DNA from: a virus
Virus genome (UHGV): UHGV-1351333
Length of the DNA stretch: 64,000 nucleotides
Reading direction: 5' to 3' (one strand)
Below the pieces are notes generated by a model, which did not search any database, was not told where the DNA came from, and saw only the letters and a program-made list of their open reading frames with translations. Below are positions 6,689 through 64,000 of the stretch, piece by piece. The position numbers and the translations under genes were made by a program. Position 1 is the stretch's first letter, and every line of letters begins with the position of its first letter.

Positions 6689-8347
6689 ATGTTGACCGAA
6701 GAACAGAAAAAGCGCCTTGCCGCCCTTCATGCTAAGGATGCCGCAACCCTCACCGACCAGGAAAAGAAAGAACTTGCCGCACTGACCGGCATGGCCGAAG
6801 TAGCCGGGCTGGCTCTCGATGACGCCTTCATGGCGCAGTATGGCCCGACCGAAGACCGGCCCCTGACCGGCGATGAGCTGAAAAAGCATATTTCCGACGC
6901 CGTAACCGAGGGCCTGAAACACTACTCCGGAACTATGGACGTTTCCAAGCTGGCGGAAGAAATCACGAAAAGCCTGAACATTCCCGATACCCGGCAGGGC
7001 ATTACGCCCGAAGACCTGAAAACCGCAGTGGCGTCCGCCCTCAGCGCGGAAACTATCATTGAGGGTCTGCAAAGCAAACTGCCCGCCGTTCCGGGCGAAG
7101 ACCAAATCAAGAAACTGGTGGAAGAAGTCGTGAATACGAACCTGCGCACCCAATCCAAGGAGTTCTACCCCGTCGATGAAAACATCGAAGTGCCGCTCTC
7201 CGGCCACAAGGGGAACCTGTCCGTGGCGGAGTACCAGCTGCTGAACATCTGCAAGATGACCGGCAAGTTCATTGACGTGAAAACCGCTCCCGCGGACATA
7301 AACGACGGCATTCCGGAATCCACCCGGAAGGCTGCCGAACAGGCCGGGGCCAAGTTCATCCGGTCGTTGAGGATGGGCCGAAAGGACGTATTCACTACCA
7401 CCGACGGGCACATCTTCCCGTCTGACCTGTCCAGTACGTTGCTTTACCGGCTGTATCTTGAGTCCCAGTTGGCCGCCGCGCTGATTTCCCAGGAAGTGCC
7501 GATGCCGACCGACCCCTATACGCTGCCTATCGCTACCACCCGCATTCGTTACCGTAAGGGTTCCGAAGCCCCGGCTTCAACCACCGCGGACAAAATCGGC
7601 CTGTCTGACGTTACGCTGAAAACTGCGAAACTTATCGGCATTACCGATTTTTCCTACGAAGCGGCCGAAGATTCCATCATTCCGGTGCTTCCCATGCTCA
7701 TGGACGACCTGGCTAAGGGCGCTGTAGAATCCCTGGAAAGCGCCATTATCAACGGCGACACGGCGGAAACCCACCAGGACGCGGACGTTACGGCGACTGA
7801 CGACGCCGCCAAGCTGTTTGACGGTCTCCGCAAGTTCGCCCTGGCGCAGAATTCCTGTAAAGTCGATATGGCGACCGGCGGCATTTCCGCGGCTTCCATT
7901 CTCAGGATGAAAGCTTCCATGGGCAAGTACGGCCTGCGGCCCTCCGACCTGCTTCTGGTCGTTTCCGCCTCCGGCTACAACACAATGCTTGGGCTGGACG
8001 AAACGCTGACCGTGGACAAGGCAGGACCGGGAGCCGCGAGAATCCTTACCGGCATCGTGCCGTCTATCTACAACATTCCGATTATCGTGTCAGAGGCTAT
8101 CAAGGCCACAAACACTTCCGGCGTCGTAGACGGCACGAGCAGCAATAACGTCAAGGATTCCCTGCTGCTGCTTTACAAGCCGTCGCTGATTCTCGGCTCC
8201 CGCCGGGGCTTCACGGTGGAATCCGAAGTGGACAAGAAACGCCAGGTTAACAGCCTGATTGCTTCTTTCCGCCGGGACTTCAAACTTAAGGAGCCGCTTG
8301 CCAGCGCGCCTACGGTCATTCTCGGCTATGGTGCGCCTGTCCTGTAA
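6689..8347 (+). CDS. Major capsid protein, HK97 fold, with N-terminal coiled-coil delta/scaffold-like domain
   Basis: 552 aa. Charged coiled-coil N-terminus (EEQKKRLAALHAKD...) followed by a domain typical of HK97-family MCPs. Sits after the protease and is followed by a strong terminator. Confidence 0.8.
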   Translation: MLTEEQKKRLAALHAKDAATLTDQEKKELAALTGMAEVAGLALDDAFMAQYGPTEDRPLTGDELKKHISDAVTEGLKHYSGTMDVSKLAEEITKSLNIPDTRQGITPEDLKTAVASALSAETIIEGLQSKLPAVPGEDQIKKLVEEVVNTNLRTQSKEFYPVDENIEVPLSGHKGNLSVAEYQLLNICKMTGKFIDVKTAPADINDGIPESTRKAAEQAGAKFIRSLRMGRKDVFTTTDGHIFPSDLSSTLLYRLYLESQLAAALISQEVPMPTDPYTLPIATTRIRYRKGSEAPASTTADKIGLSDVTLKTAKLIGITDFSYEAAEDSIIPVLPMLMDDLAKGAVESLESAIINGDTAETHQDADVTATDDAAKLFDGLRKFALAQNSCKVDMATGGISAASILRMKASMGKYGLRPSDLLLVVSASGYNTMLGLDETLTVDKAGPGAARILTGIVPSIYNIPIIVSEAIKATNTSGVVDGTSSNNVKDSLLLLYKPSLILGSRRGFTVESEVDKKRQVNSLIASFRRDFKLKEPLASAPTVILGYGAPVL

Positions 8348-20205: not shown

Positions 20206-20330
20206 ATTGACCCGTGGGGTTTCTTAATGAGAAGGTTTTTCCCTCCCTTTGATGAGAACAATTTAACACTATATTTTAAAAATTGCAAGAGAAAAAAGCA
20301 TAAAAATGATTTTTTATTACATCAAATCAA
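20206..20330 (-). promoter_or_regulatory. Inverted copy of promoter-leader element lacking the palindrome
   Basis: The reverse complement contains ...TCTTGCAATTTTTAAAATATAGTGTTAAATTGTTCTCATCAAAGGGAGGGAAAAACCTTCTC upstream of the 19837-20205 minus gene. Confidence 0.55.
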
Positions 20331-21432: not shown

Positions 21433-21567
21433 TTTTTTCTAACAGGTTTTTTGTTTTTTTTCTCTCAGGAGCTTTCCTCCCTTTGATGAATGTAATTTAA
21501 CACTATATCTTAAGAATTGCAAGAGAAAAAAGAGTTTTTCACGAAAAAAATTTGCAATCGTTGCAAA
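21433..21567 (-). promoter_or_regulatory. Conserved promoter-leader element, inverted (full copy) driving minus-strand operon
   Basis: The reverse complement of 21465-21567 reads TTTGCAACGATTGCAAA...CTCTTGCAATTCTTAAGATATAGTGTTAAATTACATTCATCAAAGGGAGGAAAGCTCC. Confidence 0.65.
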
Positions 21568-23733: not shown

Positions 23734-23770
23734 ATTGACGGTTTTTTCCGGCGCAAGTATCATGGCAGGC

Positions 23771-24379
23771 ATGAAACGATTACGTTTGATGCCTGTTTTT
23801 TTTATTATTGCCGGATGCGCCCAGCAGAATCAGGCGCCGTCCATTACAACGCCGGTTCCGGAGCCGGTCGTAGAAAAAACAGTCGTCCGGCCTGTGGCGG
23901 CGTCAACGGTCGAATGCGCGGCTACCGTTAAGGATGCGGCCAATGCCGTGCAGAACAGCATTACGGCCATCGTCTCCACGATACGGCAGGCGGAAACCGC
24001 CGCGCAAGAACAGCAAATCCCCGGCTGGGCAACATGGCTGTCCGAACTGGCGAATCAGGCCGGAAACGCGGATAAGCAGGCTGCCGTGCTGATGGACCGC
24101 TCTGACAATATGACCAAAAAAGCAGCCGCCTTGTCCGAAACGTGCGAGCAGCTGGCGGAAGAACGGGACACGGCAGTTAAAGCCGCGCAGGAATCCAGGG
24201 ACGCGGCAGCGGCAATCAAGGCGGAAGCCGCGGAAGTCAAAGCCGATGCCCAGGCCCGCCTGTCCTCCATGACGGATGAGCGTTCCTGGTGGCGGAAATG
24301 CGCTTTATGCACCTGGGCCGGCATAGCTGTTTTTTGTCTGGCGTGGCTCGGAATCCGACTGGCGAGGGCTGCCGGATAA
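23771..24379 (+). CDS. Unimolecular spanin candidate (N-terminal lipoprotein signal, C-terminal TM)
   Basis: MKRLRLMPVFFIIAGC has a lipobox, followed by a coiled-coil middle and a C-terminal hydrophobic segment WAGIAVFCLAWLGI. Lies upstream of the holin-endolysin pair. Confidence 0.35.
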   Translation: MKRLRLMPVFFIIAGCAQQNQAPSITTPVPEPVVEKTVVRPVAASTVECAATVKDAANAVQNSITAIVSTIRQAETAAQEQQIPGWATWLSELANQAGNADKQAAVLMDRSDNMTKKAAALSETCEQLAEERDTAVKAAQESRDAAAAIKAEAAEVKADAQARLSSMTDERSWWRKCALCTWAGIAVFCLAWLGIRLARAAG

Positions 24380-24395
24380 CAAAAATTTTCCTCAA

Positions 24396-24412
24396 TTTGC
24401 AATCATTGCAAA
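24396..24412. promoter_or_regulatory. 7-3-7 inverted repeat TTTGCAATCATTGCAAA
   Basis: Directly after the spanin-candidate stop, at the left edge of the AT-rich iteron region. Confidence 0.7.
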
Positions 24413-24505
24413 CCGGAAAAACCGGAGATTCAGGACCGTAATCCTACGGTCTTTTTTATTTGTCAATACTGTTTTTTACGCTTTTATAACTTATTAAACC
24501 TCATA

Positions 24506-24852
24506 CAGTTATAAATAATATGCACTGAGAAATCGCTAGTTTATTCATTTGTTATTCACTATTAACGAGTTATAAATAATTTGCACTTTTGAAAGTTCAG
24601 GGCATTCATAAGTATTTGCGTATCAGGCAGTTATAAACGCGATAAACCTGGAAAAACACGCTAAATTCTCATTTTACGTAAATATAACCGGCTAAGCTTC
24701 ATGCAGTTATAGATATTATGCCCTTTCACCGAAGTGCATTTATTTTGTAAATTACTGAAAGTGAAAGGGTTATAACTGCGGCCAAAGCGCGGAAACCTCA
24801 ATTTTTGCCTTTATAAGTGGCTGAACTGCATTTAGTTATAAATAATTTGCAC
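24506..24852. repeat. Iteron array (consensus CAGTTATAAATAAT[AT]TGCAC) in AT-rich non-coding region
   Basis: Direct copies at 24506, 24567, 24628 (degenerate) and 24704, with 61, 61 and 76 bp spacing. Inverted partial copy at 24779-24788. Best copy at 24834-24852. Confidence 0.7.
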
Positions 24853-25052
24853 TCTGAGAGTGCATTAATATAAATATATAATAATATTCGTTCCTCATAT
24901 TATTATACATTTACATTTCCCGTCCTGACCTAAAGGTCAGTACGTCGCCTGGGCTGTTCCGCCCAGGCACTCTGGGACAGGGACAGAGAGAGGGTTCCAG
25001 CCTGTGAAATTTCCGCTACTGTTCCGGCGGATTTCATGTTACGGTTCCGGAG

Positions 25053-25403
25053 ATGAAAAACCTTCCGCAAATCATCAAGGACAGTTGGCGCGATATTATC
25101 GCTTTTTTGTTCATCGGAATTTTCCTTTCCGTCGGGGTGGAATATCTGATTCGGCTTTCGGTCATCATGGATGTTACCGGGGCAGCTTCCTTCATCGCCT
25201 TGTTGCAGGGCTTCACCAAGTTTGCCGGGGCCAATCTCTGCGCATGGCTGCTGGGAGCCAATGTGGCCTTCCCGTATATTTCCCGTTGGGCCAGATTCGA
25301 CTTCAATGCGACCTGGCGCACGATGGAGGGGTTCCGGAAAGTCCAATGCTTCCTCGCGGTTGCCATCGGGGAATTGCTCATGGCCGCCATCTGCTTTGCC
25401 TGA
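25053..25403 (+). CDS. Holin candidate
   Basis: 116 aa with about three hydrophobic segments. Ends 10 nt before the lysozyme gene. Confidence 0.4.
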   Translation: MKNLPQIIKDSWRDIIAFLFIGIFLSVGVEYLIRLSVIMDVTGAASFIALLQGFTKFAGANLCAWLLGANVAFPYISRWARFDFNATWRTMEGFRKVQCFLAVAIGELLMAAICFA

Positions 25404-25412
25404 TACCGCCCC

Positions 25413-26105
25413 ATGAACGGTCAGAGTTTAATTGGTTTGGCCCTTGCGACCCTGTCCGCGTTTTTCGCCTGCGGGGATATGCCGGCTTCCGGTCTGGTCC
25501 TAAGTGACCGGGCCGTAGATATGATTATCCGGTACGAGACCGGAGGGAAGGCGTACTACGTGAAAAAGCTCGTTCGGCCTACATGGCCCGGAGGGGATAG
25601 CGGAGTGACCATCGGCATTGGTTACGACTTGGGATATTACTCGTCGGCGCAAATCCGTTCCGACTGGTCCTCCCTGCCGGAAAAAGACCTCCGGCTGCTC
25701 TGCACCGTAGCCGGATTGAAGCGTCAGGCCGCCCGTGCGTCTGTTAGCCGGGTGCGGTCTGTCACGGTTCCGTGGGAGTTGGCGTTGGACGTGTACCGAA
25801 AAAAGACGATTCCCGCCTATGCGTCCACGACTAAAACTGCGTTTCAGGGGCTGACCTTAACTCATCCCCATGTGCAGGGGGCTATGGTGTCTTTGGTGTA
25901 TAATCGGGGCGCTTCCATGTCAGGGGCCAGCCGGAAAGAGATGCGGGACTGCCGGGATGACATTAAAGCCGGGCAGGTGAAGCGGGTTCCCGCCCATATC
26001 CGAAGCATGAAACGGCTTTGGATTGGGAAGGGCCTGAATGGGCTGTTAATCCGCCGGGAAGAAGAAGCCTGCCTGGTTGAACTGGGGCTGAAAGAAAAAA
26101 ATTGA
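25413..26105 (+). CDS. Endolysin, phage-lysozyme-like, possible SAR type
   Basis: IRYETGGKAYY...GVTIGIGYD fits the phage lysozyme E...D...TIG.G pattern. N-terminal Ala/Gly/Leu-rich weakly hydrophobic segment SLIGLALATLSAFFACG is compatible with a signal-anchor-release domain. Confidence 0.6.
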   Translation: MNGQSLIGLALATLSAFFACGDMPASGLVLSDRAVDMIIRYETGGKAYYVKKLVRPTWPGGDSGVTIGIGYDLGYYSSAQIRSDWSSLPEKDLRLLCTVAGLKRQAARASVSRVRSVTVPWELALDVYRKKTIPAYASTTKTAFQGLTLTHPHVQGAMVSLVYNRGASMSGASRKEMRDCRDDIKAGQVKRVPAHIRSMKRLWIGKGLNGLLIRREEEACLVELGLKEKN

Positions 26106-26149
26106 TAAAATGTCTTGCAATTTTTTTGTGTTGTGGGTATAGTTTTCTC

Positions 26150-26416: not shown

Positions 26417-28090
26417 ATGACATCACAAGAAAAATACATTCAAAAATTGGACGACATGTTCGCCAGCGCGGTGAGTGTCGTATTTACGCCAAGCCGTGAA
26501 CCGCGCAGAACTGTAGAGGCTGTCAAGGCAATGGGGGCGCGGGACAATGTGCCGGTGTTCGTCTGGAACGATGTGTACGGCTGGAAAGTTTTTACCGGAC
26601 AGGACCGTACCGTAGGAGTTCCGGTTGACGCGGATTCCCCGGTAGGCAATTTTTATCAGGCGTTGCGCCGCATCCTGGGATTTAAAATCGGGGAAAACAC
26701 CAGTAACGCGTCTTCTCGGTTTGATTATGAAAAAGGCGCGGCATATATCGTCATGGAGGGCACTAGCCCGCATCTTGGTTTGCTTCCAATGACGACAACG
26801 CTTCTCAAGGATTACGCCTATTCCTTCCCGGAAACGCTCATGAGCCTTGTGTTGATTACGTCGGAATCCTACACCATTCCGGAAGAGCTGGCCCACGACA
26901 TTCTGGTTGTGGATTTTGACCTGCCGACAAAAACCGACTTGCGCCACGCATGGGAAAGCACCGTAGTCAATCAGTACGAGTCCAAGAACCTTCCGATTCC
27001 CGAAACCTATATTCCGGGGGACAGCGTGGATGCGCTGGTCAATGCAGCATCCGGCATGACGATTCTGGAAGCGGAAACTGCGTATTCAAGGGCTTTTACC
27101 CTCAATGACCGCCTGTTCCCGGATATTCCCGTTGAAAACCTTCTCGCGCAGGTCCACCGCTCGAAGGAAGACATTGTGAAAAAGTCACAGACACTGGAAA
27201 TGGTTAACCCCATTCCGGTTGATTCCATCGGCGGCCTGGAATTGCTGAAAGACTGGTTTATCACGCGGTCGGTATGTTTCAGCGAAGAGGCCCGCAAGGC
27301 GAAAGTTGATGCGCCTAAAGGCGTAGCCCTTATCGGGCCGCCTGGAACGGGTAAGTCGGTATGCTCCAAGGCGGTGGCATCCATTCTCAATCTTCCCCTC
27401 GTGCGGGTGGATTTGGGGCGGCTGTTCGGGTCTCTTATCGGTCAGACGGAAGCCCGCACCCGGACCATGTTGAAGGAATTGGAAGCTATGGCCCCCTGCA
27501 TTGTCTGGGTGGACGAAGTTGACAAGGCGGGCTTGTCTTCCGGGGCTAATGGAGATTCCGGCGTATCTTCCCGCCTGCTGGGTTCTCTGCTGACCCACAT
27601 GTCGGAAAATGAGTCTGGCTTGTTCTGGATTTTCACCGCCAACCGGACGGAGAATCTGCCGTCGGAATTCTTGCGGAAGGGGCGGCTGGATGAAGTCTTT
27701 TCCGTTCTGCCTCCGACTTGGGCCGAACGCCGCCAGATTTTTGACATCCACTTGAGCAAGCGCGGAATCAATATTGATGATATTGCCGACTTTGACCAGG
27801 TGCTGACGGAAAGCCGGGGATTCGTATCTGCGGAAATTGAAGCCGCGTGCAAGGAAGCGAAAGTGCTTTCTTTTTATCGGAACGTTCCGGTTACGAGCAG
27901 CCTTTTGCGGTCCACCCTTAAAGGCATCATTCCAATTTCGGAAGCGTACAAAGACCAGTTTGACGCTATGACCGAGTGGGCGCAGAATAACGCGAGGCCG
28001 TCTTCCGAGCAAGAGGTTGACGTTGATGCTTCCAGCCCGCTTCCGTCCAGCATTCCGGAATCGTTGCGTGCCCGCCGCCGCAGGCATTGA
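26417..28090 (+). CDS. AAA+ ATPase (Ycf46-like architecture)
   Basis: Walker A GPPGTGKS, Walker B IVWVDEVD, sensor/arginine region FTANRTENLPSEFLRKGRLDEVF. A 300-aa N-terminal domain precedes the AAA module. Confidence 0.75.
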   Translation: MTSQEKYIQKLDDMFASAVSVVFTPSREPRRTVEAVKAMGARDNVPVFVWNDVYGWKVFTGQDRTVGVPVDADSPVGNFYQALRRILGFKIGENTSNASSRFDYEKGAAYIVMEGTSPHLGLLPMTTTLLKDYAYSFPETLMSLVLITSESYTIPEELAHDILVVDFDLPTKTDLRHAWESTVVNQYESKNLPIPETYIPGDSVDALVNAASGMTILEAETAYSRAFTLNDRLFPDIPVENLLAQVHRSKEDIVKKSQTLEMVNPIPVDSIGGLELLKDWFITRSVCFSEEARKAKVDAPKGVALIGPPGTGKSVCSKAVASILNLPLVRVDLGRLFGSLIGQTEARTRTMLKELEAMAPCIVWVDEVDKAGLSSGANGDSGVSSRLLGSLLTHMSENESGLFWIFTANRTENLPSEFLRKGRLDEVFSVLPPTWAERRQIFDIHLSKRGINIDDIADFDQVLTESRGFVSAEIEAACKEAKVLSFYRNVPVTSSLLRSTLKGIIPISEAYKDQFDAMTEWAQNNARPSSEQEVDVDASSPLPSSIPESLRARRRRH

Positions 28091-28168
28091 TTAGCGTGGT
28101 GATTTTTTATCCTGCATTTTTTCAATATTTGTCTTGCAATTCTTAAATTAAAAGGGTATATTACTGAC

Positions 28169-28810
28169 ATGAGCAATGATTTAAGCACTCTTGATACCGT
28201 CACCGGGGAAATGCAGACGCTGGTGAATGGGTATGTTAAAGTGATTTTATTCAAGGTTCAGCTTCCGGGGCCGGGAACGCTGTACAAGGAAGATGGCATT
28301 TTCCGCAACAACGTTCCGGGCGTGAACCGCATCGGGTTCCCTGGGTCTATCGCCTCCCTGCAAAATGGGAGGCCGGAAGTGTGCGGAACGGTTTTTTCCG
28401 GGAAGTACAGCCTGACCCCAGGTTCTTTCCTTAAAATTTTTGTCAAGGCGCATCGGCGCAGGTCATTTCCGGAATCGGCCAGCCTGTTCATCAGGATGCG
28501 CCCTTCGGCCGCCTTGCGGCGTATCACTGTTTCCTGCCCGGAAGACCCTAAAGCCACCATTTCCGAGTTCAGCATTACCGGACGCTTCGACCTGGTAAAA
28601 CCCATTGAGGCCATTGCCGCCGGGTGTAGAATCCCTGAGCAGTTCAAGCTTGGGTACGCTCCCACAGTGGTAAACCGTTTGATGCGGTTTAGCGTTCTGT
28701 CTCCGGAAACAGCCACCCGGACCGTAGTCCGCACGGCTTCCGGGGAAGAAAAAGAAGTCATTGTCGCCAAGAGGCGGCGGCGTTTGGGCGGGGTACGTTC
28801 CCACTCCTGA
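28169..28810 (+). CDS. Hypothetical protein
   Basis: 213-aa ORF between the AAA+ gene and the DUF1257-like gene. Upstream solitary TTGCAAT promoter element. Confidence 0.4.
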   Translation: MSNDLSTLDTVTGEMQTLVNGYVKVILFKVQLPGPGTLYKEDGIFRNNVPGVNRIGFPGSIASLQNGRPEVCGTVFSGKYSLTPGSFLKIFVKAHRRRSFPESASLFIRMRPSAALRRITVSCPEDPKATISEFSITGRFDLVKPIEAIAAGCRIPEQFKLGYAPTVVNRLMRFSVLSPETATRTVVRTASGEEKEVIVAKRRRRLGGVRSHS

Positions 28811-28848
28811 AAAAAATCTCTCTCATTATCACCAACAAAAAATAAACC

Positions 28849-29334
28849 ATGAGCCATACAACCAAAGTCAAATCCGTAGTTATCCGGGACGTCCGGGCCA
28901 TTCGCGCCGCTGTGCAGGAACTCCAACGCGAGGGGCGGAAAATCGCCCTGAAAGAAAACGCCGTTCCGCGGATGTATTACAAGGACCAGTTCCAGTCGAG
29001 CACCAAACGCCAGCAGGCGGAATTCGTCATCGAATGTCAGGGAATGTCCGTCAGTACTGGAAAACCGTGTGACGTGGGCCTGGTCAAGCAGGACGACGGG
29101 ACGTTCATTCCGTATCTCGATACGTGGGGCGGGTACGTCAAAGAGCATTGCGGGAATCCGAAACTGACTGCCGGAAACGGCCTTACGGATTCGGATATTG
29201 CCATTGCCGCTTTTTCCCAGGCGTATTCCAAACATGCGGCTATTTTCGCGGCAACCGACCAGGGCTATACTGTCCAGGACTGTTATCTTGACTCCGCGGG
29301 CAACGTGCAGTTGACCGTAGCCACCGGATTTTAA
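28849..29334 (+). CDS. DUF1257 (Ycf35)-like protein
   Basis: MSHTTKVKSVVIRDVRAIRAAVQEL...AEFVIECQGMSVSTGKPCDVGLVKQDDGTFIPYLDTWGG follows the remembered DUF1257 pattern MSH..I.T.I.d...L..A...L....aefVI....yDvGf..q.dGsy....D.w. Based on recollection, not a search. Confidence 0.4.
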   Translation: MSHTTKVKSVVIRDVRAIRAAVQELQREGRKIALKENAVPRMYYKDQFQSSTKRQQAEFVIECQGMSVSTGKPCDVGLVKQDDGTFIPYLDTWGGYVKEHCGNPKLTAGNGLTDSDIAIAAFSQAYSKHAAIFAATDQGYTVQDCYLDSAGNVQLTVATGF

Positions 29335-29342
29335 TTCTGAAA

Positions 29343-29359
29343 TTTGCAACGATTACAAA
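29343..29359. promoter_or_regulatory. Degenerate 7-3-7 inverted repeat TTTGCAACGATTACAAA
   Basis: One mismatch in the right arm. 11 nt upstream of the DUF2997-like ATG. Confidence 0.5.
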
Positions 29360-29957: not shown

Positions 29958-30003
29958 CTGATACAAGTTACGCTGAAAACACTTTAATCGTGCGCCGTGA
30001 ATT

Positions 30004-30912
30004 GTGCCAAAATCTCATGTACAGTCAAGCGGAATTCAGGATTTTCACAAAATCTGGTGCTGGCTGTACCGAACGGTCCGCCCCGCGCTGGAAGCGGAAT
30101 CCGTTACATTGTTTCCCGTGCTGGAATTTGTGTTCGACCGGACATTGGCCCGCGGAAAGCCCTGGGAAGTTATCAGGCTTTTTCAGTTTTCGCAAAATCT
30201 GGCGTTGCACCGGAACACTATTTCCCGGAATATCAAGCGGCTGGTTGCGCTGGGGCTTGTTCTTGCCCGGAGTCCGAAACATGGCCGGGCGGTTTATTCC
30301 ATCAATTTAACCTGGACTGACACCGATATGATGAAAACACCGAAACGGGGCCGGACGGAAGCCCCTGTAATTCCCCTTTCCGAGATAGGCCGCATGGCGG
30401 CGGAAAAAGCGGCGGAAGCCAAAAAGAGAAAGCAGCGTAAATTGTCGTTTGACGCGGTTTCCGGTTTTTGGGCTTCTACCGTCATAGATTTGCTGGGAAA
30501 AGACGCTTTTATTGCGCCGACGAAAACGAATTACATGACGTTATTCGCCTACGCGAAACGGTTTACGTCCGGGGACAAAACTTTTTCTGATTTTAAGGAT
30601 TTTTTAACCTGGGCAATCGGCCGCTGGCAGCTTGTCATGCGAGATTCTTTCCGGTGGACAAAAAACACCGCCCCGAAAGTGCCGTCTATCGGCTGGCTGG
30701 TGAAATTTTCCGCTCAATTCGAGGAAGCTTATTTGCTTTATCTCAATCCGGTCGCGGGAAAAAACCTGTCTGCCGACCCAGCGGCCAAACCGGAGAGCAG
30801 CCGCCCCCGAACGGTCAGACCGAAAACGGCAAAGCCTAAACCACAGCCGCCGAAACTCCTGAGGCCGTCAGGCGCCGAGGCCGGAATTGACGAGCTTCCG
30901 GAGTGGCGATAA
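30004..30912 (+). CDS. Putative winged-HTH DNA-binding protein (replication initiator/organiser candidate)
   Basis: LFQFSQNLALHRNTISRNIKRLVALGLV is an HTH-like segment. Basic Pro-rich C-terminus. Sits upstream of the helicase gene. GTG start as in the ORF table; true start uncertain. Confidence 0.35.
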   Translation: MPKSHVQSSGIQDFHKIWCWLYRTVRPALEAESVTLFPVLEFVFDRTLARGKPWEVIRLFQFSQNLALHRNTISRNIKRLVALGLVLARSPKHGRAVYSINLTWTDTDMMKTPKRGRTEAPVIPLSEIGRMAAEKAAEAKKRKQRKLSFDAVSGFWASTVIDLLGKDAFIAPTKTNYMTLFAYAKRFTSGDKTFSDFKDFLTWAIGRWQLVMRDSFRWTKNTAPKVPSIGWLVKFSAQFEEAYLLYLNPVAGKNLSADPAAKPESSRPRTVRPKTAKPKPQPPKLLRPSGAEAGIDELPEWR

Positions 30913-31502: not shown

Positions 31503-32774
31503 ATGGCCGTAGGCATTGATTTTTTGCGCGCCGTCTGCGCCGAACAGAACGTGTCCCTGCTCCACCAGGTGGACGCCACTTATTTTCTCGATGACGAGCA
31601 GCCTTTTTACCGGTTTGTCCGCAACCATTACGACAATTATCATTCATTGCCGGACGCGAGGGCGCAGGCCATTGGGCGGTTTTCCTTTAATACGCCGCTG
31701 GTCAACAACGGGCAATACTGGTTTGCCACGCTCGTCAACCGGACGCGGTACAATGCCGTGCGGAGATATTACTCTCAATTCCAGACGGCGATAAAGACCT
31801 ACGATTGGGAGCAGCTGCTTGGCATTACGTCGGCAATACAGTCATCAGTGCTCGCTGTCGGCGCCAGTCAGGGCTATACCAATATGCACCAGCAGGCCCA
31901 AGCGGTGTGGGAAGATTACCAGATTGCCAGACGGTCGTCTGACATGCGGGGCATCCCTACTCCGTGGGAGACGCTGAATCAGGCGACCGGGGGCTGGGCC
32001 GGGGGCGATTTGGTAGTGATTGCCGGACGTCCCGGCATGGGCAAATCGTGGTCGCTGCTCAAATGTATGGAGGCGGCCTTTACGGCGGGAAAAAAATGCG
32101 GATTCGTTTCTATGGAAATGTCGCCGATTCAAATCGCCCGCCGTTGGATAGGGCTTCGGGCCGGCATCAACCCGAACCTGATTAGGCAGGGGACTATGAC
32201 GACGTACTCGGAGCGCCGGATGCGGGATTTGATTGCCCGGATGGCGGACGAAGAAGCCCTCCATATCCTTTCCGGCGATATGTCGAAAACGACCGACAAA
32301 GTAGTGGGGATGATCGACCAGCTTCATCCGGACATCATGTTTGTTGATGCGGTTTATCTGCTTTCGCCGTCCGGGATGCGGCTTGGGTACGTGAAACGGT
32401 GGGAAGCGCTGACGGAAGTTATCCGGGAGCTAAAACAGTGCGCCATTAAAAATGGGATTCCGATTGTGATTACCGTGCAACTTAACCGGAACGTGAAAAC
32501 GAACTCAAGGCGGGAACTGGATTCCGGGGATATTTCCGGCTCGGATTCCATTCCGCAGGACGCGTCTATTTTGCTCGGTCAAAGACACGGGCCGGGTCCT
32601 TTCGGCTATCGCTACCGGTATTACGACTTTATGAAAAACCGGGACGGCGAAACTCCCGATTTCATGACCAATTTTGTTTTCGACCCCCCTAATTTTGATG
32701 AGGTTCCCATACCGGACGATGAGGCTTCCGGGGAACCTGTGGAGCCTGATTCGGCTACCGGTTACACTTACTAA
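31503..32774 (+). CDS. dnaB: Replicative DNA helicase, DnaB family
   Basis: LVVIAGRPGMGKSWSLL (DnaB Walker A G.RP.MGKT), FVSMEMS (DnaB SLEMS motif), and the RecA-like C-terminal domain. Confidence 0.8.
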   Translation: MAVGIDFLRAVCAEQNVSLLHQVDATYFLDDEQPFYRFVRNHYDNYHSLPDARAQAIGRFSFNTPLVNNGQYWFATLVNRTRYNAVRRYYSQFQTAIKTYDWEQLLGITSAIQSSVLAVGASQGYTNMHQQAQAVWEDYQIARRSSDMRGIPTPWETLNQATGGWAGGDLVVIAGRPGMGKSWSLLKCMEAAFTAGKKCGFVSMEMSPIQIARRWIGLRAGINPNLIRQGTMTTYSERRMRDLIARMADEEALHILSGDMSKTTDKVVGMIDQLHPDIMFVDAVYLLSPSGMRLGYVKRWEALTEVIRELKQCAIKNGIPIVITVQLNRNVKTNSRRELDSGDISGSDSIPQDASILLGQRHGPGPFGYRYRYYDFMKNRDGETPDFMTNFVFDPPNFDEVPIPDDEASGEPVEPDSATGYTY

Positions 32775-37757: not shown

Positions 37758-37774
37758 CTTCTTCATTTTTTCAA

Positions 37775-37928
37775 TTTGCAACGATTGCAAATTTTTTTCG
37801 TGAAAAACTCTTTTTTATCTTGCAATTTATAAAAAACAATGCTAAATTACATTCATCAAAGGGAAGGAAAAACCTTCCCGCACAGCTAAAAAACCTGAAA
37901 GTTAAATTAAAAAAAGGAACTAAAAAAA
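37775..37928 (+). promoter_or_regulatory. Conserved promoter-leader element (palindrome, TTGCAAT box, TAAATTAC box, leader hairpin)
   Basis: TTTGCAACGATTGCAAA, then ...TCTTGCAATTTATAAAAAACAATGCTAAATTACATTCATCAAAGGGAAGGAAAAACCTTCCC... before the ATG at 37929. Leader hairpin GGGAAGG/CCTTCCC. Confidence 0.7.
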
Positions 37929-46753: not shown

Positions 46754-46781
46754 GCAACCGCTGATTTCTTGTCTTTTTCAA

Positions 46782-46919
46782 TTTGCAATCATTGCAAATT
46801 TTTTTCTCAAAAAAGTTCTTTTTTCTCTTGCAATTTATAAAATATAATGTTAAATTGTTTTCATCAAAGGGAGGGAAACTCCTGAGAGAAAAACAAAAAA
46901 CCTGAACATTATTAATACC
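46782..46919 (+). promoter_or_regulatory. Conserved promoter-leader element (full copy)
   Basis: TTTGCAATCATTGCAAA...TCTTGCAATTTATAAAATATAATGTTAAATTGTTTTCATCAAAGGGAGGGAAACTCCTGAGAG..., then ATG at 46920. Confidence 0.7.
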
Positions 46920-47897: not shown

Positions 47898-47940
47898 CCC
47901 CTAATCCGGAGTGATGCCCGGATTAGGGGATTTTTTATTT
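47898..47940 (+). terminator. Intrinsic terminator
   Basis: CCCCTAATCCGG-AGTGATGC-CCGGATTAGGGG followed by ATTTTTTATTT. Confidence 0.8.
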
Positions 47941-47945
47941 CTCAA

Positions 47946-48080
47946 TTTGCAATCATTGCAAATTTTTTTCGTGAAAAACTCTTTTTTCTCTTGCAATTCT
48001 TAAGATATAGTGTTAAATTACATTCATCAAAGGGAGGAAAGCTCCTGAGAGAGAAAAAACAAAAAACCTGTTAGAAAAAA
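47946..48080 (+). promoter_or_regulatory. Conserved promoter-leader element (full copy)
   Basis: Same architecture as 46782-46919. Leader hairpin GGGAGG-AAAG-CTCCT. ATG at 48081. Confidence 0.7.
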
Positions 48081-51856: not shown

Positions 51857-52498
51857 ATGCGGGGCATGATTATGTCCCAGGCCAATTCCCGTGCCTGGAC
51901 GCGGCATGAACGGCATGTTGTCATGCGCCGGGCCTTGTCGATGGGAAAGCTGGAAGAGCTTATTGACTGGTACCCGCGGCCCGGACAGAGCATCCATATC
52001 CTATCGTGCGGGGAAATAGACCTGTTTTCTTATCTCCATTTCATGCTCCGGCAACGCCCCTATGCTTATATCCTGATTTCAACGTTCAGCCTCGGCTACA
52101 TGGAAATTCGCGCCCTGCACGATTATCTGGAAAAGGGCGTGATTGGGCGGCTGGATGTGTACGCGAGAAGCATCTTCCGCAACCGGACTATTCGGACGCG
52201 GGAATACGATGCGCTGGTTGCTTTACACAAAAGATTTCCGCATTGTTTCTGCGGGCTGGCGAATGTTCACGCGAAAATCATTGCCGGAATCGACCGAGAA
52301 CAGGGGGAGGGCGATTTTGTTGTGGAGGCCAGCGCCAACGCCAACCTGAACTTCCGCATTGAACAGGCGTGCCTGACAATGGATACCGACCTGGCGCTTT
52401 TTTATAAAGACGCGATGGACGGGGTCGAGTGTCCGCAGGACGCGCAATATTTCAGGAACGTGAGAAAAACCCCATGGGCGGTTGACCGAAAAAATTAA
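51857..52498 (+). CDS. Hypothetical protein
   Basis: 213-aa ORF. Weak HxK...D resemblance only. Confidence 0.45.
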   Translation: MRGMIMSQANSRAWTRHERHVVMRRALSMGKLEELIDWYPRPGQSIHILSCGEIDLFSYLHFMLRQRPYAYILISTFSLGYMEIRALHDYLEKGVIGRLDVYARSIFRNRTIRTREYDALVALHKRFPHCFCGLANVHAKIIAGIDREQGEGDFVVEASANANLNFRIEQACLTMDTDLALFYKDAMDGVECPQDAQYFRNVRKTPWAVDRKN

Positions 52499-52628
52499 TT
52501 TGCAACGATTGCAAATTTTTTTCGTGAAAAACTCTTTTTTCTCTTGCAATTTTTAAAATATAATGCTAAATTACATTCATCAAAGGGAGGGAAACTTCCT
52601 GAAATTAAAAAACCGAAAATTAAAGATA
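52499..52628 (+). promoter_or_regulatory. Conserved promoter-leader element (full copy)
   Basis: TTTGCAACGATTGCAAA...TCTTGCAATTTTTAAAATATAATGCTAAATTACATTCATCAAAGGGAGGGAAACTTCCTG... ATG at 52629. Confidence 0.7.
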
Positions 52629-54208: not shown

Positions 54209-54218
54209 ATCCTTTCAA

Positions 54219-54354
54219 TTTGCAATCATTGCAAATTTTTTTCTCAAAAAAGTTCTTTTTTCTCTTGCAATTTATAAAAAACAATGCTAAATTACATTCA
54301 TCAAAGGGAGGAAAGCTCCTGAGAGAAAAAAAACAAAAAACCTGAAACAAGACA
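54219..54354 (+). promoter_or_regulatory. Conserved promoter-leader element (full copy)
   Basis: Nearly identical to the 46782 and 47946 copies. ATG at 54355. Confidence 0.7.
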
Positions 54355-57706: not shown

Positions 57707-59206
57707 ATGCACGATACCACCATCACCGCAGAAGACGGCGCGCCCGGCTGCCGGAGCCGCCTGGAAGAAACCGCCATGCTGGTCCCCCGGCTGCTGTTAA
57801 AAGCCCGTACCGATTTTACCGCGTTCCTGCTCGCCATTTCCGACGAGGAATCCGGTTACATCCTGTCCCGAATGCACCTGTTCATCGCGGGCAAGCTCAA
57901 TGATACTGTCACCCGGCGGGACGCGCCGAGGAATTACACCATTTCCGTGCCGCCCCAGCATGGGAAATCTTCCTTGATTGTGCGGTATGTCGCGTGGCTG
58001 GTAGGGGCTTATCCGAGATTGTGCGTCGCCCTGACCGGCTTTTCCGCCGAACTGATGGGCCAGATGCTCCGGCAAGTCACGTCCATTATGGATTTGCCCG
58101 TGTATCAGGTGATTTTTCCGGGGGTGAAAGTAAAGCCGAAGGATGACCGCTGGGATTACAAGCGTTTTACCAACGACGCTATCATTTACGCCAAACCGGC
58201 AGGTTCCAAGCTGACCGGGAGGCGGGTGGACATCCTCATCATCGACGACCCCCATGCCGGACGCGCCGAAGCGGAATCCCCCACTATCCGCAACCGCGTC
58301 GTGCAGTGGGCCGTTGCAGACTGCTTTTCCCGCCTTTCGCCCCATTGGCGGGTGTTCGTCATCGGCACCCGGTGGCATCCGGAAGACCTCATCGGACACC
58401 TTACCGGGAGAGAGTACAACAAACGCCTTGAAATGCTGGGCAACACCGCCATGAAATTTGAGGTCATCAAAATTCCGGCCATTTGCGAAGACCCGGCTAC
58501 CGACCCGCTGGGGCGGGAGGCCGGAGAAGTGGCGTTTCCGGAAGAACGCGACCTGGAGTTTCTAACTTCCATCCGGGGGGCCATGACCACGACGGAGTGG
58601 AAATCGCAATACCAGCAGGAGCCGGTCACGTCCAAGGGCGGGCAGGTCAACGCGGATGACTTTAACATTATTTCCCCGGACGAAGTGCCGTGGGGCGAGC
58701 TGACGGCCATCGGCTCCGGCTGGGATTTGGCCGCAACCGACAAAACGGCTTCCGACTGGACCGTAGGCACGTGCGGGGCGAGAACGAGGGATGGCCGTTT
58801 GTACATCTTCGACCAGTTCCGCAGGCAGATGCAGATTCCGAAACTGCTTCCGGCCATCGAAGCCCGCGCCCTGGCGTGGAAAGACGCGCATGGGGCCAAC
58901 CAACTGGGCGTGGAAGGCGTCGGGGGCATGGTCGGATATTATCAGCAGCTTCGCCAAATGCTTCTGGGGAAAATCAGCGTGCGGCTCAAAAATCCCCCGG
59001 TCAAAGGAGGAGGAAAGCTGGTGCGGGCGCAGAACTGGCTGGCCCTGGTCGAGGCGAAAAAAGTGTATCTGGTGCAAGCCCCGTGGGTGCGGGCGTTTCT
59101 GGAAGAAGTAGAAGTGTTCCCTGACGGTGACCATGACGACCAGGTGGACAGCGTTTCCATCCTTTATGAGCTTCTGTTCCTGTCTACCCGTATTCTGGTT
59201 GGATAG
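57707..59206 (+). CDS. Terminase large subunit
   Basis: Walker A VPPQHGKSS, Walker B ILIIDDPHAG. C-terminal nuclease-domain acidic residues (GSGWDLAATDK... FPDGDHDDQVDSVS). Confidence 0.85.
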   Translation: MHDTTITAEDGAPGCRSRLEETAMLVPRLLLKARTDFTAFLLAISDEESGYILSRMHLFIAGKLNDTVTRRDAPRNYTISVPPQHGKSSLIVRYVAWLVGAYPRLCVALTGFSAELMGQMLRQVTSIMDLPVYQVIFPGVKVKPKDDRWDYKRFTNDAIIYAKPAGSKLTGRRVDILIIDDPHAGRAEAESPTIRNRVVQWAVADCFSRLSPHWRVFVIGTRWHPEDLIGHLTGREYNKRLEMLGNTAMKFEVIKIPAICEDPATDPLGREAGEVAFPEERDLEFLTSIRGAMTTTEWKSQYQQEPVTSKGGQVNADDFNIISPDEVPWGELTAIGSGWDLAATDKTASDWTVGTCGARTRDGRLYIFDQFRRQMQIPKLLPAIEARALAWKDAHGANQLGVEGVGGMVGYYQQLRQMLLGKISVRLKNPPVKGGGKLVRAQNWLALVEAKKVYLVQAPWVRAFLEEVEVFPDGDHDDQVDSVSILYELLFLSTRILVG

Positions 59207-59316: not shown

Positions 59317-59856
59317 ATGGAAAATAATAAAATTATTTATTTATCGCCTGATAAACTTATTGAGTATGATAATAATACCCGTCTTCATGATGAGGAGCAG
59401 ATTAACCAAATTTGTAGGTCTATTCGTGAATTTGGATTTACAAATCCTATTCTTATCGATGAAAACAATATTATTATTGCTGGACACGGACGTAAAGCCG
59501 CCGCAATTAGGCTTGGGCTAAAAACAATCCCCGCTATCCGATTATCTGGATTAACGGATAAGCAAATAAAGGCACTGCGTATTGCCGATAATAAGCTTGC
59601 ACTTAATGCGGGCTGGGATGATGAGCTATTAAAGTTTGAGATTTTAAGTCTGCAAGAGAGCGATTTTGACTTAGAGTTATTAGGCTTCTCCGTGGATGAA
59701 ATTGACAGCTTTCTTGTCGCAGAGGAAGAAATAAAAGAGGAAGGAGAATTAAAATGCGAAGAAGCTAAAGAAAAAATACCAAATGATTTTAAAACTGTAG
59801 AAGAAACAAAACTAGTTCATAGATGCCCGCGATGCAATTATGAATTTAATGACTAA
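59317..59856 (+). CDS. ParB-like nuclease domain protein
   Basis: IEYDNNTRLHDEEQINQICRSIREFGFTNPILIDENNIIIAGHGRKAAAIRLGLKTIP matches the ParB N-terminal (ParBc) domain. Lies in an island of about 30% GC. Confidence 0.6.
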   Translation: MENNKIIYLSPDKLIEYDNNTRLHDEEQINQICRSIREFGFTNPILIDENNIIIAGHGRKAAAIRLGLKTIPAIRLSGLTDKQIKALRIADNKLALNAGWDDELLKFEILSLQESDFDLELLGFSVDEIDSFLVAEEEIKEEGELKCEEAKEKIPNDFKTVEETKLVHRCPRCNYEFND

Positions 59857-59876
59857 CAATGAACGGATAGCTATTT

Positions 59877-60941
59877 ATGGAGTATAAGATTCCGACAGTT
59901 TTAGAAATCAAAGAGCGTCTTGCCAAGGAGGGGCCATTATTTAATGTTGTTTCATTGTTTGCCGGTGGCGGAGGAAGTTCATGCGGCTATAGAATGGCCG
60001 GAGCCAAGGTACTCGCAATAAATGAATTTATACCTGAAGCAAGAAATACTTATCATGCTAATTGGCCAGATACTACAATCTTTCCTTGCGACGTGCGAGA
60101 CTTAGACGCAAATGATATTTTAAGAGCTATTAATATGGCGCCGGGTGAACTTGATGTACTTGACGGGTCTCCACCCTGTTGCGGGTTTTCTTCTTCCGGA
60201 AAAAGAAGTAAAGGATGGGGGCAAAATAGGAGATATTCTGACTCAGCCCAGGTAGGAGTTGAAACTCTTTTTTTTGAGTACATCCGAATTTTGCGAGAAT
60301 TAAAGCCTAAATGTTTTATCGCTGAAAATGTTGCTGGATTAGCACAAGGCGTATCACGCGGTTATCTTAATGAATTTCTAAGAGCATTCTCCGCATCTGA
60401 TTATATATGTAAAGCAAAAATCCTTAATGCACAGTATCTTGGTGTACCACAGTGCCGACATAGACTTATTTTTGTCGGTGTTAGAAAAGACTTATGGCGT
60501 TCAGAGTTTGAAAATAAAACGCATCCGAAACCGTTTAGCTATTTAATACCGCTCAAAGATGCTTTTCGCGGTATTATAAATACGTCAGAAGAGCTTGCGC
60601 AGGTTGATATATCAAAATACGTGATTTATCAACGTCTTATAAAGTTGAAAAAGGGGAAATCTGACTCTGAAAGGTTTAATCTGGTAAAAGCTGATGATAA
60701 TAGGCCGTCTCCGTGCATAACGGCGTCCACTGGACGTTTAGGGTGCGCTTGTGCCTGTCATTGGGACAATAGAGCTTTTACACTTAAAGAGCTTAAAAGA
60801 ATAACAAGCGTACCAGACGATTATATATTAACAGGAACATATAGCCAGCAGGTTGAACGGCTCGGACGTATGGTCCCACCCTTGATGATGAAAGCAGTCG
60901 CAGCAAATCTTTATACTAATATTTTAAAGGAGTTAAAATGA
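59877..60941 (+). CDS. DNA cytosine-5 methyltransferase
   Basis: Motif I FAGGGGSSCGY, motif IV GSPPCCGFSSSG (PC catalytic dipeptide), motif VI IAENVAGL. Lies in the AT-rich island. Confidence 0.8.
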   Translation: MEYKIPTVLEIKERLAKEGPLFNVVSLFAGGGGSSCGYRMAGAKVLAINEFIPEARNTYHANWPDTTIFPCDVRDLDANDILRAINMAPGELDVLDGSPPCCGFSSSGKRSKGWGQNRRYSDSAQVGVETLFFEYIRILRELKPKCFIAENVAGLAQGVSRGYLNEFLRAFSASDYICKAKILNAQYLGVPQCRHRLIFVGVRKDLWRSEFENKTHPKPFSYLIPLKDAFRGIINTSEELAQVDISKYVIYQRLIKLKKGKSDSERFNLVKADDNRPSPCITASTGRLGCACACHWDNRAFTLKELKRITSVPDDYILTGTYSQQVERLGRMVPPLMMKAVAANLYTNILKELK

Positions 60942-61594
60942 AAATTCCAAAGAGCTGGACATTTAAAGATAACCAAGTCGCAAAGAAATTTGACTCTCAT
61001 GTACGAGAGCAGTTGCCGTGGTATAACATTCTTACAAATCTTGTGGCTATTGTAGCTAAACATTACATGCCGGAGAATGGCATTGGATATGATATTGGCG
61101 CAAGTACAGGCAACCTCGGCAATGTACTTAAAGATATTATAAAATCCAGAAGATTTAACTGGATAGGAATCGATAATTCTGAGCAAATGAAAGCGTATTA
61201 TCGTGCTCCCGGAAAGCTTGAAATTTGTGATGCTATAGATTACGATTTTCAATCTTTCGATATTGCAGTCTGTTTTTTAGTCCTTATGTTCTTTCCTAAA
61301 GATAAGCGAGAACTCTGGTTAAAAAATCTTATTGAAAAAGCAAAGTTTGGAGCTGCGATAATTATCGTAGATAAAGAAGAATTAAAGGGTGGAATTTTAT
61401 CGACAGCTTTATACCGAGCAACAGTTTTAAGTAAGTTAGAATATACGACTGCTGAGAAAATTCTTGAAAAAGAATCATCTCTTTGCGGTATTCAAAACCC
61501 ATTGCCTCGTGATTTTATGCTGCAATTTGGCGCAACAGAGATTTTCAGGTTTGGTGATTTTGCCGCATGGGTTATCGAGAAAAAATGGCATTAG
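60938..61594 (+). CDS. Class I SAM-dependent methyltransferase, CmoA-like layout
   Basis: WTFKDNQVAKKFDSHV...LPWY..., YDIGASTGNLG (motif I), WIGIDNSEQM, VCFLVLMFFP...AAIIIVDK parallel CmoA blocks (WTFDERVAEVFPDM, YDLGCSLG, IAIDNSPAM, LNFTLQFL...LVLSEK). SD-like AAAGGAG upstream. Confidence 0.5.
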   Translation: MKIPKSWTFKDNQVAKKFDSHVREQLPWYNILTNLVAIVAKHYMPENGIGYDIGASTGNLGNVLKDIIKSRRFNWIGIDNSEQMKAYYRAPGKLEICDAIDYDFQSFDIAVCFLVLMFFPKDKRELWLKNLIEKAKFGAAIIIVDKEELKGGILSTALYRATVLSKLEYTTAEKILEKESSLCGIQNPLPRDFMLQFGATEIFRFGDFAAWVIEKKWH

Positions 61595-63824: not shown

Positions 63825-63922
63825 TAACTGTACGAAAAAATCGTACAGTTGATATTCCTCCCATCAGGCCCTGCCCGGAAGCGCTTACCGGCAGGGCCGC
63901 AATATATCTTGTCCCCCCCCAA

Positions 63923-64000
63923 TTTGCAATCATTGCAAATTTTTTTTCGTGAAAAACTCTTTTTCCTCTTGCAATTTATAAAAAACAATGCTAAATTGTT
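63923..64000 (+). promoter_or_regulatory. Conserved promoter-leader element (truncated by window end)
   Basis: C8 tract then TTTGCAATCATTGCAAA...TCTTGCAATTTATAAAAAACAATGCTAAATTGTT. Confidence 0.65.

Follow-up and report, generated by a model that had tools for sequence, protein, structure and literature searches.

An AT-rich repeat region between lysis-type genes of an abundant, uncultured human-gut phage: a possible lineage-specific transcription-control region

The 64,000-nucleotide (nt) stretch of the virus genome UHGV-1351333 analyzed here (hereinafter the window) covers most of the genome (84.5 kb) of a tailed phage that is known from human-gut metagenomes, has not been cultured, and appears to be lytic. 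About 670 bases of it (24380–25052), reaching from the stop codon of a lipoprotein gene (24377–24379) to the ATG of a gene for a holin-like membrane protein (25053), form an AT-rich gap that holds a real, selected, lineage-specific non-coding repeat region. We tentatively posit, at somewhat less than an even chance, that this gap is a lineage-specific transcription-control region, which splits an otherwise contiguous lysis cassette. Most likely, it is an ordinary kind of feature, namely a phage intergenic control region, in an unstudied and abundant phage. The original prediction for this stretch had favored an iteron-type replication origin, with a multi-operator array for a repressor or a partition site as its alternatives. 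The genome-wide counts given below cover ~82 kb, i.e., the window and a further 18 kb of the same genome. The pseudo-genome of 84.5 kb referred to in places comprises the window and two loci of a 99.98%-identical contig, with one 2.4-kb hole left.

The repeat array

Across 24400–24899 the GC fraction, taken in 100-bp segments, is 0.26–0.40 as compared to ~0.53 for the window. The phage is represented by two lineages, the type of the window (including L271, L275, and L276) and a common type (including L001–L003, L035–L044, and L273–L279), and the gap has no open reading frame (ORF) of at least 20 amino acids (aa) that is conserved between them. Thus, the earlier description of the gap as non-coding and AT-rich holds, and we rejected a hidden small protein gene, as no ORF is kept in both lineages. 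Exact copies of the 19-mer AGTTATAAATAATWTGCAC lie at 24507, 24568, and 24834, and a copy with three mismatches at 24705, against a chance expectation of 0.01. The 19-mer is found nowhere else in the window or in the further 18 kb, and the gap as a whole shows only chance matches of 11–17 nt to other parts of the pseudo-genome.

If a weaker copy at 24629 is included, the first three copies lie 61 bp apart, precisely as had been reported. The count of five direct copies and one inverted copy likewise stands; the assigned length of ~20 bp does not, as the similarity spans ~60 nt. In-register 61-nt units ending in TGCACT are 43–69% identical, as compared to 28 ± 7% when pairs are drawn at random from the region, and share a layout in which a T-rich tract is followed by a TATAAC box and, 18 nt further on, by an AT-rich 12-mer that leads into TGCAC. 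There are six such units, five direct (+ strand) and one inverted (minus strand). The start-to-start distances of the TGCAC cores are 61, 61, 76, and 129 bp, with phases differing by up to ~0.4 turn of a 10.5-bp helix. When both strands and both lineages are considered, TGCAC is present in 13 of the 14 sites, while the surrounding AT context varies.

U1 (24466–24526, + strand) has its TATAAC at 24484, the AT-rich 12-mer at 24509–24520, and TGCAC at 24521, with no hairpin. U2 (24527–24587, +) displays a 12-mer (24570–24581) that is conserved at 12 of 12 positions between the lineages, and a TGCAC at 24582 that is followed by the weak palindrome TGCACTTTTGAAAGTTCA, whose hairpin is not significant. 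U3 (24588–24648, +) is degenerate in the window (…GTTATAAACGCGATAAAC), with a better copy in the common lineage (…GTTATAAATGCACT). U4 (24664–24724, +) combines TATAAC at 24685 and a 12-mer at 24707–24718 with TGCCC at 24719, for which the common lineage has TGCAC. The sole minus-strand unit, U5 (24733–24793), is complete, with its TGCAC at 24738–24734 and its TATAAC box at 24769–24776 (GGTTATAAC); the inverted copy previously placed at 24769 is hence real but constitutes the upstream box of a full unit. U6 (24793–24853, +) has TATAAG at 24811, the 12-mer at 24836–24847, and TGCAC at 24848; its boxes are 92–100% conserved between the lineages as compared to 53% for the segment between them.

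Hairpins lie where units converge. U4 and U5 have in common HP-A (24719–24747, +), a TGCCCTT…AAGTGCA hairpin (24719–24738) followed by TTTATTTTG. In the common lineage, HP-A has a perfect 7-bp stem (−8.2 kcal/mol, z = −3.3) that is called by a terminator scan on the + strand; the copy in the window is weaker (−4.8 kcal/mol). U6 converges with a partial minus-strand copy (24864) at HP-B (24848–24864), which has the form TGCACTC-TGA-GAGTGCA (TGCACTCTGAGAGTGCA). The two lineages give one and the same folding energy for HP-B, −9.2 kcal/mol (z = −3.8), and the scan marks it as terminator-like, here for the minus strand. HP-A, HP-B, and the weak hairpin after U2 all have TGCACTY at the start and RAGTGCA at the end, with loops of unequal length between them, a pattern that speaks for a hairpin or a half-site rather than for a dimer site of fixed geometry. 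The short palindromes listed earlier for the array, TGCACTCTGAGAGTGCA, CCTTTCAC (24722–24729), and GTGAAAGG (24761–24768), are all present, the first of them one base away from where it had been placed.

The flanks of the array

The operon upstream of the array ends in an intrinsic terminator (24432–24460, +) with a 9-bp stem, AGGACCGTA/TACGGTCTT, followed by TTTTTTATTT. Recovered by the terminator scan, it folds at −11.5 kcal/mol (z = −4.6) and is 91% conserved between the lineages. To its left lie the small hairpin CCGGAAAAACCGG (24413–24425, +), which is invariant in 14 of 14 aligned genomes, and a palindrome of the form AATTTGCAA-yrA-TTGCAAA(TT) (24394–24412). The palindrome and the adjacent CCGG hairpin (together 24388–24425) are 95% conserved between the lineages. 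This 7-3-7 palindrome had been taken as the left bound of the array; it is real, but as it has 22 copies in the genome, the copy at 24394–24412 is not a private boundary.

In its full form, this is a 21-bp perfect palindrome, AATTTGCAA-yrA-TTGCAAATT. Its 22 copies in ~82 kb are almost always intergenic, and about half of them are followed by a T-run. They are found at 2468, 6514, 12534, 16531, 21549, 24394, 26365, 29341, 35642, 37773, 42950, 46780, 47944, 52497, 53002, 54217, 59218, and 63921, with four more in the genome outside the window. Moreover, 40 of the 45 genome copies of the 8-mer AATTTGCA fall in these palindromes. The strict sequence conservation of what is a weak hairpin (−6.5 kcal/mol) suggests a sequence-specific reader, either a regulator or an RNase, rather than plain terminators.

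On the right, the array adjoins an AT core in the form of an inverted repeat (24865–24917; arms 24867–24887 and 24897–24917, loop TCGTTCCTC) that is almost pure A/T. Its inverted-repeat folds have z = −4.0 and −3.8, and one arm-closing pair has changed from A–T to G–C between the lineages. The segment 24859–24920 is the least stable 30- and 60-bp duplex in the ~82 kb, and 24454–24754 is the least stable 300 bp. Beyond the core lies a structured 5′ leader (24920–25052, +). The two hairpins that had been noted before the holin gene are indeed there (24920–24945 and 24947–24968), along with a further helix between 24970–24978 and 25044–25052, which covers the 9 nt directly 5′ of the ATG of the holin-like gene. 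The stretch containing the leader (24885–25060) has a minimum free energy of −62.2 kcal/mol (z = −3.3 against shuffles), and in a consensus fold computed from both lineages, two pairs of the first leader hairpin are compensatory. This stability, together with the two compensatory changes, argues that 24920–25052 is transcribed and functional as RNA.

A known precedent for a leader of a phage lysis gene that occludes the ribosome-binding site is the sdi stem-loop of lambda S. The similarity lies in a conserved RNA helix over the nucleotides just 5′ of the start codon. In contrast, the leader described here is much longer, has several hairpins, no sequence relation to sdi, and no evident dual-start motif, and the holin that it precedes is a putative one.

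Conservation between lineages and distribution among relatives

The two lineages are ~80% identical across the gap. However, the identity is unevenly spread: the boxes (TATAAC, AT 12-mers, TGCAC cores, and hairpins) are 85% identical as compared to 70% elsewhere (Fisher p = 2e-4). The four-fold-degenerate sites of the flanking genes are 67–81% identical between the lineages. As the identity of the spacers is near that of the four-fold sites, the spacers drift at about the neutral rate, and the boxes are under moderate constraint. The AT box is rewritten between the lineages in three units (TAATAT to TAGTAT, TATTAT to TAACTT, and TAATTT to AAATTT). The TAnnnT directly 5′ of GCAC is kept in the first two of these but not in TAATTT/AAATTT, while two of the three rewritten units have lost the upstream GTTATAAA, the core in the view of the original prediction.

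As a separate observation, the divergence of the lineages is mosaic: in the comparison with L035 over 26417–28810 and its flanks, the four-fold sites of the AAA ATPase gene and the next gene are 93–95% identical, as compared to 67–81% on either side. This indicates recent recombination between the lineages.

The gap is not a general feature of the wider group. In five metagenomic relatives, whose holin-like proteins are 35–66% identical, the upstream and holin-like genes are just 1–80 bp apart. In the cultured phages L338C and HJ05, the block that begins with the tail genes, includes the AAA ATPase, and ends with the replication genes is kept and has no large gap; it includes an annotated peptidoglycan hydrolase in L338C, while that of HJ05 is annotated only as hypothetical proteins. 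The only counterpart is seen in L032 (52% identical, 42% GC), whose AT-rich gap measures 355 bp. The repeats in it are quite different, comprising three copies of CCCGTCTAAATTTTA, the inverted pair CTTGCAAACAGArTAAAT, and the direct pair AAAATACAGnnGAAATA, along with a similar TTAATATATATA core. That the region is missing at a tight gene junction in relatives points to an added control element rather than a part of the core machinery.

A possible control region within the lysis cassette

The phage has a promoter family of its own, which takes the form of a T-run, TCTTGCAA-N14-TGnTAAATT, ~15 nt, and AAAGGGAGG and has 12–14 copies. The copies range over 26.1–64 kb, the early/replication half of the genome (+ strand, at 26109, 28128, 35682, 37814, 39793, 46822, 47985, 52538, 54259, 59259, and 63963), with two on the minus strand near 20–21.5 kb (20239–20298 and 21473–21532) at two small minus-strand genes. 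There is none in the gap. No family promoter lies 5′ of the structural genes; hence, late transcription must use something else. Beyond the gap, the next one is only at 26109, 3′ of the lysozyme-like gene. Given this, the pair of holin-like and lysozyme-like genes needs a start site inside the gap.

Some copies of both the palindrome and this promoter belong to larger dispersed cassettes of ~125 nt (palindrome, T-run, and promoter) that are 68–92% alike (37768–37892, 46776–46900, 47939–48063, 52492–52616, 54213–54337, and 63920–64000). Several metagenome contigs of the phage break at or near these cassettes.

We accordingly favor, with due reserve, the following reading of the gap. The long upstream operon of structural, glycosyltransferase, and spanin-like genes would be terminated at 24432–24460, and the holin-like and lysozyme-like genes would be re-started within the AT-rich region. 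The six ~60-nt units may be duplicated promoter-type modules, each comprising a T-rich upstream tract, TATAAC, a weakly conserved −35-like TGAAC/TAAAC, an AT-rich TAnnnT, and a start region at TGCAC. Since U1–U4 face the HP-A hairpin and its U-tract, they might give rise to only short non-coding transcripts. U6 and the AT core could then serve as the proximal start and feed a leader of 130–200 nt. By pairing the 9 nt before the start codon, the fold of this leader might hold back translation of the holin-like gene until it is opened or processed. Thus, the insertion would uncouple the holin-like/lysozyme-like pair from the late operon while adding starts and a translational brake of its own. 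We infer that the units are promoters or transcription-factor sites, and we do likewise for the polymerase and sigma factor that they would use and for the direction and timing of control.

Several features are in line with this proposal: the ~60-nt unit is promoter-sized, five of the six copies are oriented toward the downstream genes, and the element nearest TGCAC is a −10-like TAnnnT in most units. In overall organization, the gap recalls the A1-A2-A3 early promoters of T7, a tandem promoter cluster at a module boundary of a lytic phage. Like clusters of that type, it has similar promoter-sized units in one orientation in an AT-rich non-coding segment that lies 5′ of genes and after a terminator. 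Unlike in those, the units are not consensus sigma-70 promoters, one of them is inverted, and their location is within a lysis cassette and not at an end of the genome.

Other observations weigh against the units being promoters. They do not resemble the promoter family of the phage, and there is no consistent −35 element, the −35-like TGAAC/TAAAC being weak. A generic sigma-70 consensus score is attained by a single site in the gap: this candidate (24854–24882, +; CTGAGA-17-TATAAT) matches 10 of 12 positions. Its TATAAT is kept in the common lineage but not its −35, and the scan yields no more sites than in shuffled sequence. An arrangement unusual for promoters is that U5 and the partial copy at 24864 run against other units, with a hairpin in common, and the AT 12-mers are also readable as the U-tracts of minus-strand terminators. 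An invariant TGCAC in a variable AT context could equally be the half-site of a protein. Moreover, the motif was not found 5′ of any other late gene.

Certain specific promoter types were considered and set aside. The T4-type late promoter motif TATAAATA occurs four times but upstream of no structural gene. Sigma-54, extracytoplasmic-function (ECF)-type, and NtrC-type readings of TGCAC, inspected by eye, misfit in their spacings except at one TGCAC-N7-GTGCA site.

Alternative readings of the array

In a rather unlikely alternative, the array would be a set of binding sites for a phage DNA-binding regulator rather than promoters, with the sites acting as operators, activator sites, or a "sink". 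It might even be read by the same protein as the 22 AATTTGCAA-yrA-TTGCAAATT palindromes, as the AATTTGCAC of the array is one base off their half-site. The near-invariance of TGCAC amid changing AT context would fit such a role, as would the conserved boxes in near-neutral spacers, the occurrence of units in both orientations, and the location in the array of two of the five AATTTGCA 8-mers that lie outside palindromes. However, that excess outside palindromes is small (five against about two expected by our own estimate), the inverted TGCAC pairs are spaced by 7, 8, and 10 nt and so offer no single dimer geometry, and among the neighboring small proteins, none emerged as a candidate regulator. 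The multi-operator alternative of the original prediction comes close to what the evidence favors in being regulatory, with the repressor-type array itself being one rival among several.

We give very little chance to the array being a locus of small non-coding RNA genes, for example, for an RNA of 100–250 nt that would run from or upstream of U1–U4 to HP-A and its U-tract (~24750). In a variant of this proposal, short hairpin RNAs would issue from the units, conceivably as decoys mimicking CRISPR repeats. In both lineages, the + strand of HP-A does read as a hairpin plus U-tract resembling a terminator, and terminator-like sites are enriched in the common lineage (six found against 0.9 ± 1.0 expected). 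On the other hand, no Rfam family is matched at threshold, U1 has no hairpin and that of U2 is not significant, the units, at 43–69%, are less alike than CRISPR or ToxI-type repeats, and scans of viral contigs for the hairpin motif returned single chance matches only. The combination of AAATAATTT, a 5-bp stem, and an AT tract is one that we took to be type V-A CRISPR repeat-like and the 61-bp period to be array-like, for which no support was found. A CRISPR or type V-A mimic was rejected, as there is no CRISPR-DR match in Rfam even at E ≤ 5; among the matches listed, no array corresponds to the one described here, the bacterial AATTTGCACT arrays being Firmicutes repeats of an unrelated kind, 36 nt long and of the form GTTT…CTCTCAAAC. 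A type III antitoxin-like repeat RNA was also rejected, as a toxin gene is lacking and the units differ too much from one another.

A non-functional, decaying duplication has only a slim chance of accounting for the array. Similarly slim is the chance of a composite state in which the array and the AT core would form a promoter-coupled origin or short-hairpin-RNA mini-genes, with the AATTTGCAC/GTGCA stems imitating the AATTTGCAA palindrome; if so, the add-on would titrate or redirect the palindrome-reading factor and thereby act as a timing switch to lysis. A plasmid-type partition (centromere) site, the last alternative of the original prediction, has next to no chance. The array is superficially sopC-like in that some units carry a short palindrome, and circular assemblies of the phage are frequent. 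Yet neither the window nor the further 18 kb has a ParA/ParB operon, and the sole protein with a ParB_N domain (59317–59856) lies 35 kb away beside a C5 DNA methylase in a low-GC island. Further, no integrase or lysogeny module was seen in the phage, and no related prophage or plasmid was found among 185,579 species genomes. A cos or pac site was rejected because 33 kb separate the gap from the terminase and the contig ends occur at many positions, several of them at dispersed repeats and none here, and attP because no integrase was seen.

The replication-origin question

We regard a replication origin as doubtful, yet as the chief rival of the control-region reading. In such a scenario, the units or their TGCAC cores would bind a phage initiator, for example the product of 30004–30912; the AT core (24865–24917) would melt; and the DnaB-type helicase (31503–32774), primase, and PolA would then be loaded. 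In a variant, the origin would be coupled to a promoter, as known from T7 and the lactococcal c2-type phages, and a non-coding transcript of the array would open or prime the AT core. The array is exclusive to the region, clustered, and selected, and it adjoins the least stable short duplex of the ~82 kb, with inverted repeats flanking the AT core. The phage further encodes an O-like winged helix-turn-helix protein, DnaB, a primase, and PolA.

Against this, repeats of classic iteron origins are typically 17–22 bp, close together, and helically phased (PMC4980987), and though iterons of up to 76 bp are on record (PMC4980987), cooperative Rep binding needs phasing (PMC4980987), while the spacings of 61, 61, 76, and 129 bp here have no common helical phase. 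As in theta-plasmid and lambdoid iteron origins, there are direct repeats by a meltable AT tract, and a winged-helix initiator-like protein and DnaB are encoded; unlike in these, we found neither phased 17–22-bp repeats nor DnaA boxes nor an adjacent or overlapping rep gene (PMC4980987). For the DnaA box TTWTNCACA with at most one mismatch, the window has 109 matches against 100 ± 10 expected, though this consensus may not be that of the host. The gap has only two one-mismatch boxes and no perfect one, and thus no cluster. The genes that flank the array are for membrane and lysis-type proteins. The sole initiator-like gene, 30004–30912, lies 5 kb away; its weak matches to MarR_2 and Phage_rep_O fall below the cut-offs (E = 0.059 for the family match), and it contains no convincing internal iterons. 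At the 5′ end of this gene, which itself lies just upstream of DnaB, we observed three loose copies of CAAAATCTGG (TTTTCrCAAAATCTGG) at 30001–30015, 30041–30062, and 30187–30207, which are a possible alternative initiator-binding site.

The distribution of the region bears on the question from both sides. It is missing from the five metagenomic relatives, and the two cultured relatives of the same gene order have no large gap. c2-type origins are non-coding intergenic segments between the first two early promoters, and their sequence differs between relatives (PMC7150918); the positional counterpart in L032, with its different repeats but similar TTAATATATATA core, would fit such "sequence diversity, functional conservation" (PMC7150918). 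Like the origins of Ceduovirus (c2-type) phages, the gap is a non-coding intergenic segment without ORFs between late and early modules, with putative promoters where those origins are flanked by promoters or contain them; among related c2-type phages, the origin sequence is completely different, with position and function retained (PMC7150918). However, the c2 origin lies between divergent modules and drives plasmid replication, whereas the genes around the gap are co-directional and most relatives are without the region.

The GC-skew check proposed with the original prediction gave a change-point that is compatible with the site but spread too widely to single it out. Cumulative GC skew of the pseudo-genome is at its minima at 13 and 22 kb, shows a sustained rise from ~2.5 kb left of the gap, and reaches a plateau at 62–67 kb. 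The best two-state model of the skew at four-fold sites of + strand genes yields +0.11 from 25413 to 54139 as compared to −0.02 elsewhere, which is significant overall (delta-logL 15); this contrast exists even though nearly all genes share one strand. The left boundary of this positive segment is best placed just to the right of the gap, at 25.4 kb, but falls within two log units anywhere in 16.5–26.4 kb. Both ends of the skewed segment (25.4–54.1 kb) match the early-gene module with the standard promoters, so that the skew need not reflect replication. Hence, it is compatible with an origin at the gap but neither confirms nor refutes the site. The label of a classic iteron-type origin is not borne out by the irregular spacing, the lack of a DnaA-box cluster, the distance of the initiator-like gene, and the absence from most relatives.

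Neighboring genes and genome context

The head and tail genes occupy 0–20 kb, with the major capsid gene at 6689 and the tape-measure gene at 13348. Between the tail genes and the gap are two GT25 glycosyltransferases and then the last gene before the gap (23735–24379, +). It codes for a 214-aa lipoprotein with the lipobox IIAGC and a C-terminal transmembrane segment, which has no significant family match; judged by this architecture, which is like that of a unimolecular spanin, we take it to be a putative spanin. The gene after the gap (25053–25403, +) codes for a 116-aa membrane protein with three hydrophobic segments, presumably a holin given its position and hydrophobicity. The lysozyme-like gene (25413–26105) follows, its lysozyme match (E = 4.6e-4) being under the Pfam cut-off, and then the AAA ATPase (26417) and the O-like winged-helix protein (30004). 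Further replication genes include the DnaB-type helicase, PolA (32792), RNase H, a primase, a helicase, and RecA, with TerL at 57707–59206. A 363-aa minus-strand ORF at 28258–29349 is probably spurious, as the called + strand genes of relatives match the window ORFs 28169–28810 and 28849–29334.

There is no close relative among cultured phages at the DNA level. The closest ones are distant: their AAA ATPases are 40% (Rhizobium phage L338C) and 34% (Aeromonas phage HJ05) identical to that of the window. Circular permutation is seen in the assemblies of 82–88 kb, whose ends vary widely in position. A contractile-tail sheath has been reported for the "Flandersviridae" (PMC8008677); we rejected membership in this group, as the present genome has no sheath-sized gene 5′ of the tape-measure gene. 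In some relatives, the AAA ATPase is much longer, with 793 aa in L032 (8853–11234) and more than 832 aa in L286 (4364–6351), and that of L032 shows a match to an intein-splicing domain.

Directly 3′ of TerL lies what looks like a foreign insertion, a low-GC island (59317–61594; ~40% GC, GC3 ~0.3) that codes for a 218-aa protein in addition to the ParB_N-domain protein and the C5 DNA methylase. Outside the window, a sulfur-activation cluster (L046 18909–20388; L048 1–1416) codes for a CysN-like GTPase, an APS kinase, a PAPS reductase, and a sulfotransferase. Along with the GT25/GT11 glycosyltransferases, these predicted functions suggest that the phage may modify host surface glycans. Finally, a GC-rich motif of 19–23 nt, (A)CCTGTTCCGGAACGGTCGGATT, has six copies within different genes (10613, 34135, 42821, 45110, 57402, and 63760), two of which are 96% alike.

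Implications

The gap offers a caution for the scanning of genomes: the largest AT-rich gap with direct repeats is not sufficient to call an iteron origin, and such a call further requires a look at how long the units are, whether they are phased, where the initiator gene lies, and whether relatives conserve the array. As for the phage itself, one variant of its AAA ATPase is recorded on 407 contigs, in line with a phage that is very common in human-gut metagenomes. Its control regions, namely the possible dedicated switch before the lysis genes, the 22-copy palindrome, and the 12–14-copy promoter family, present themselves as targets for metatranscriptomics and, once a host is found, for engineering.

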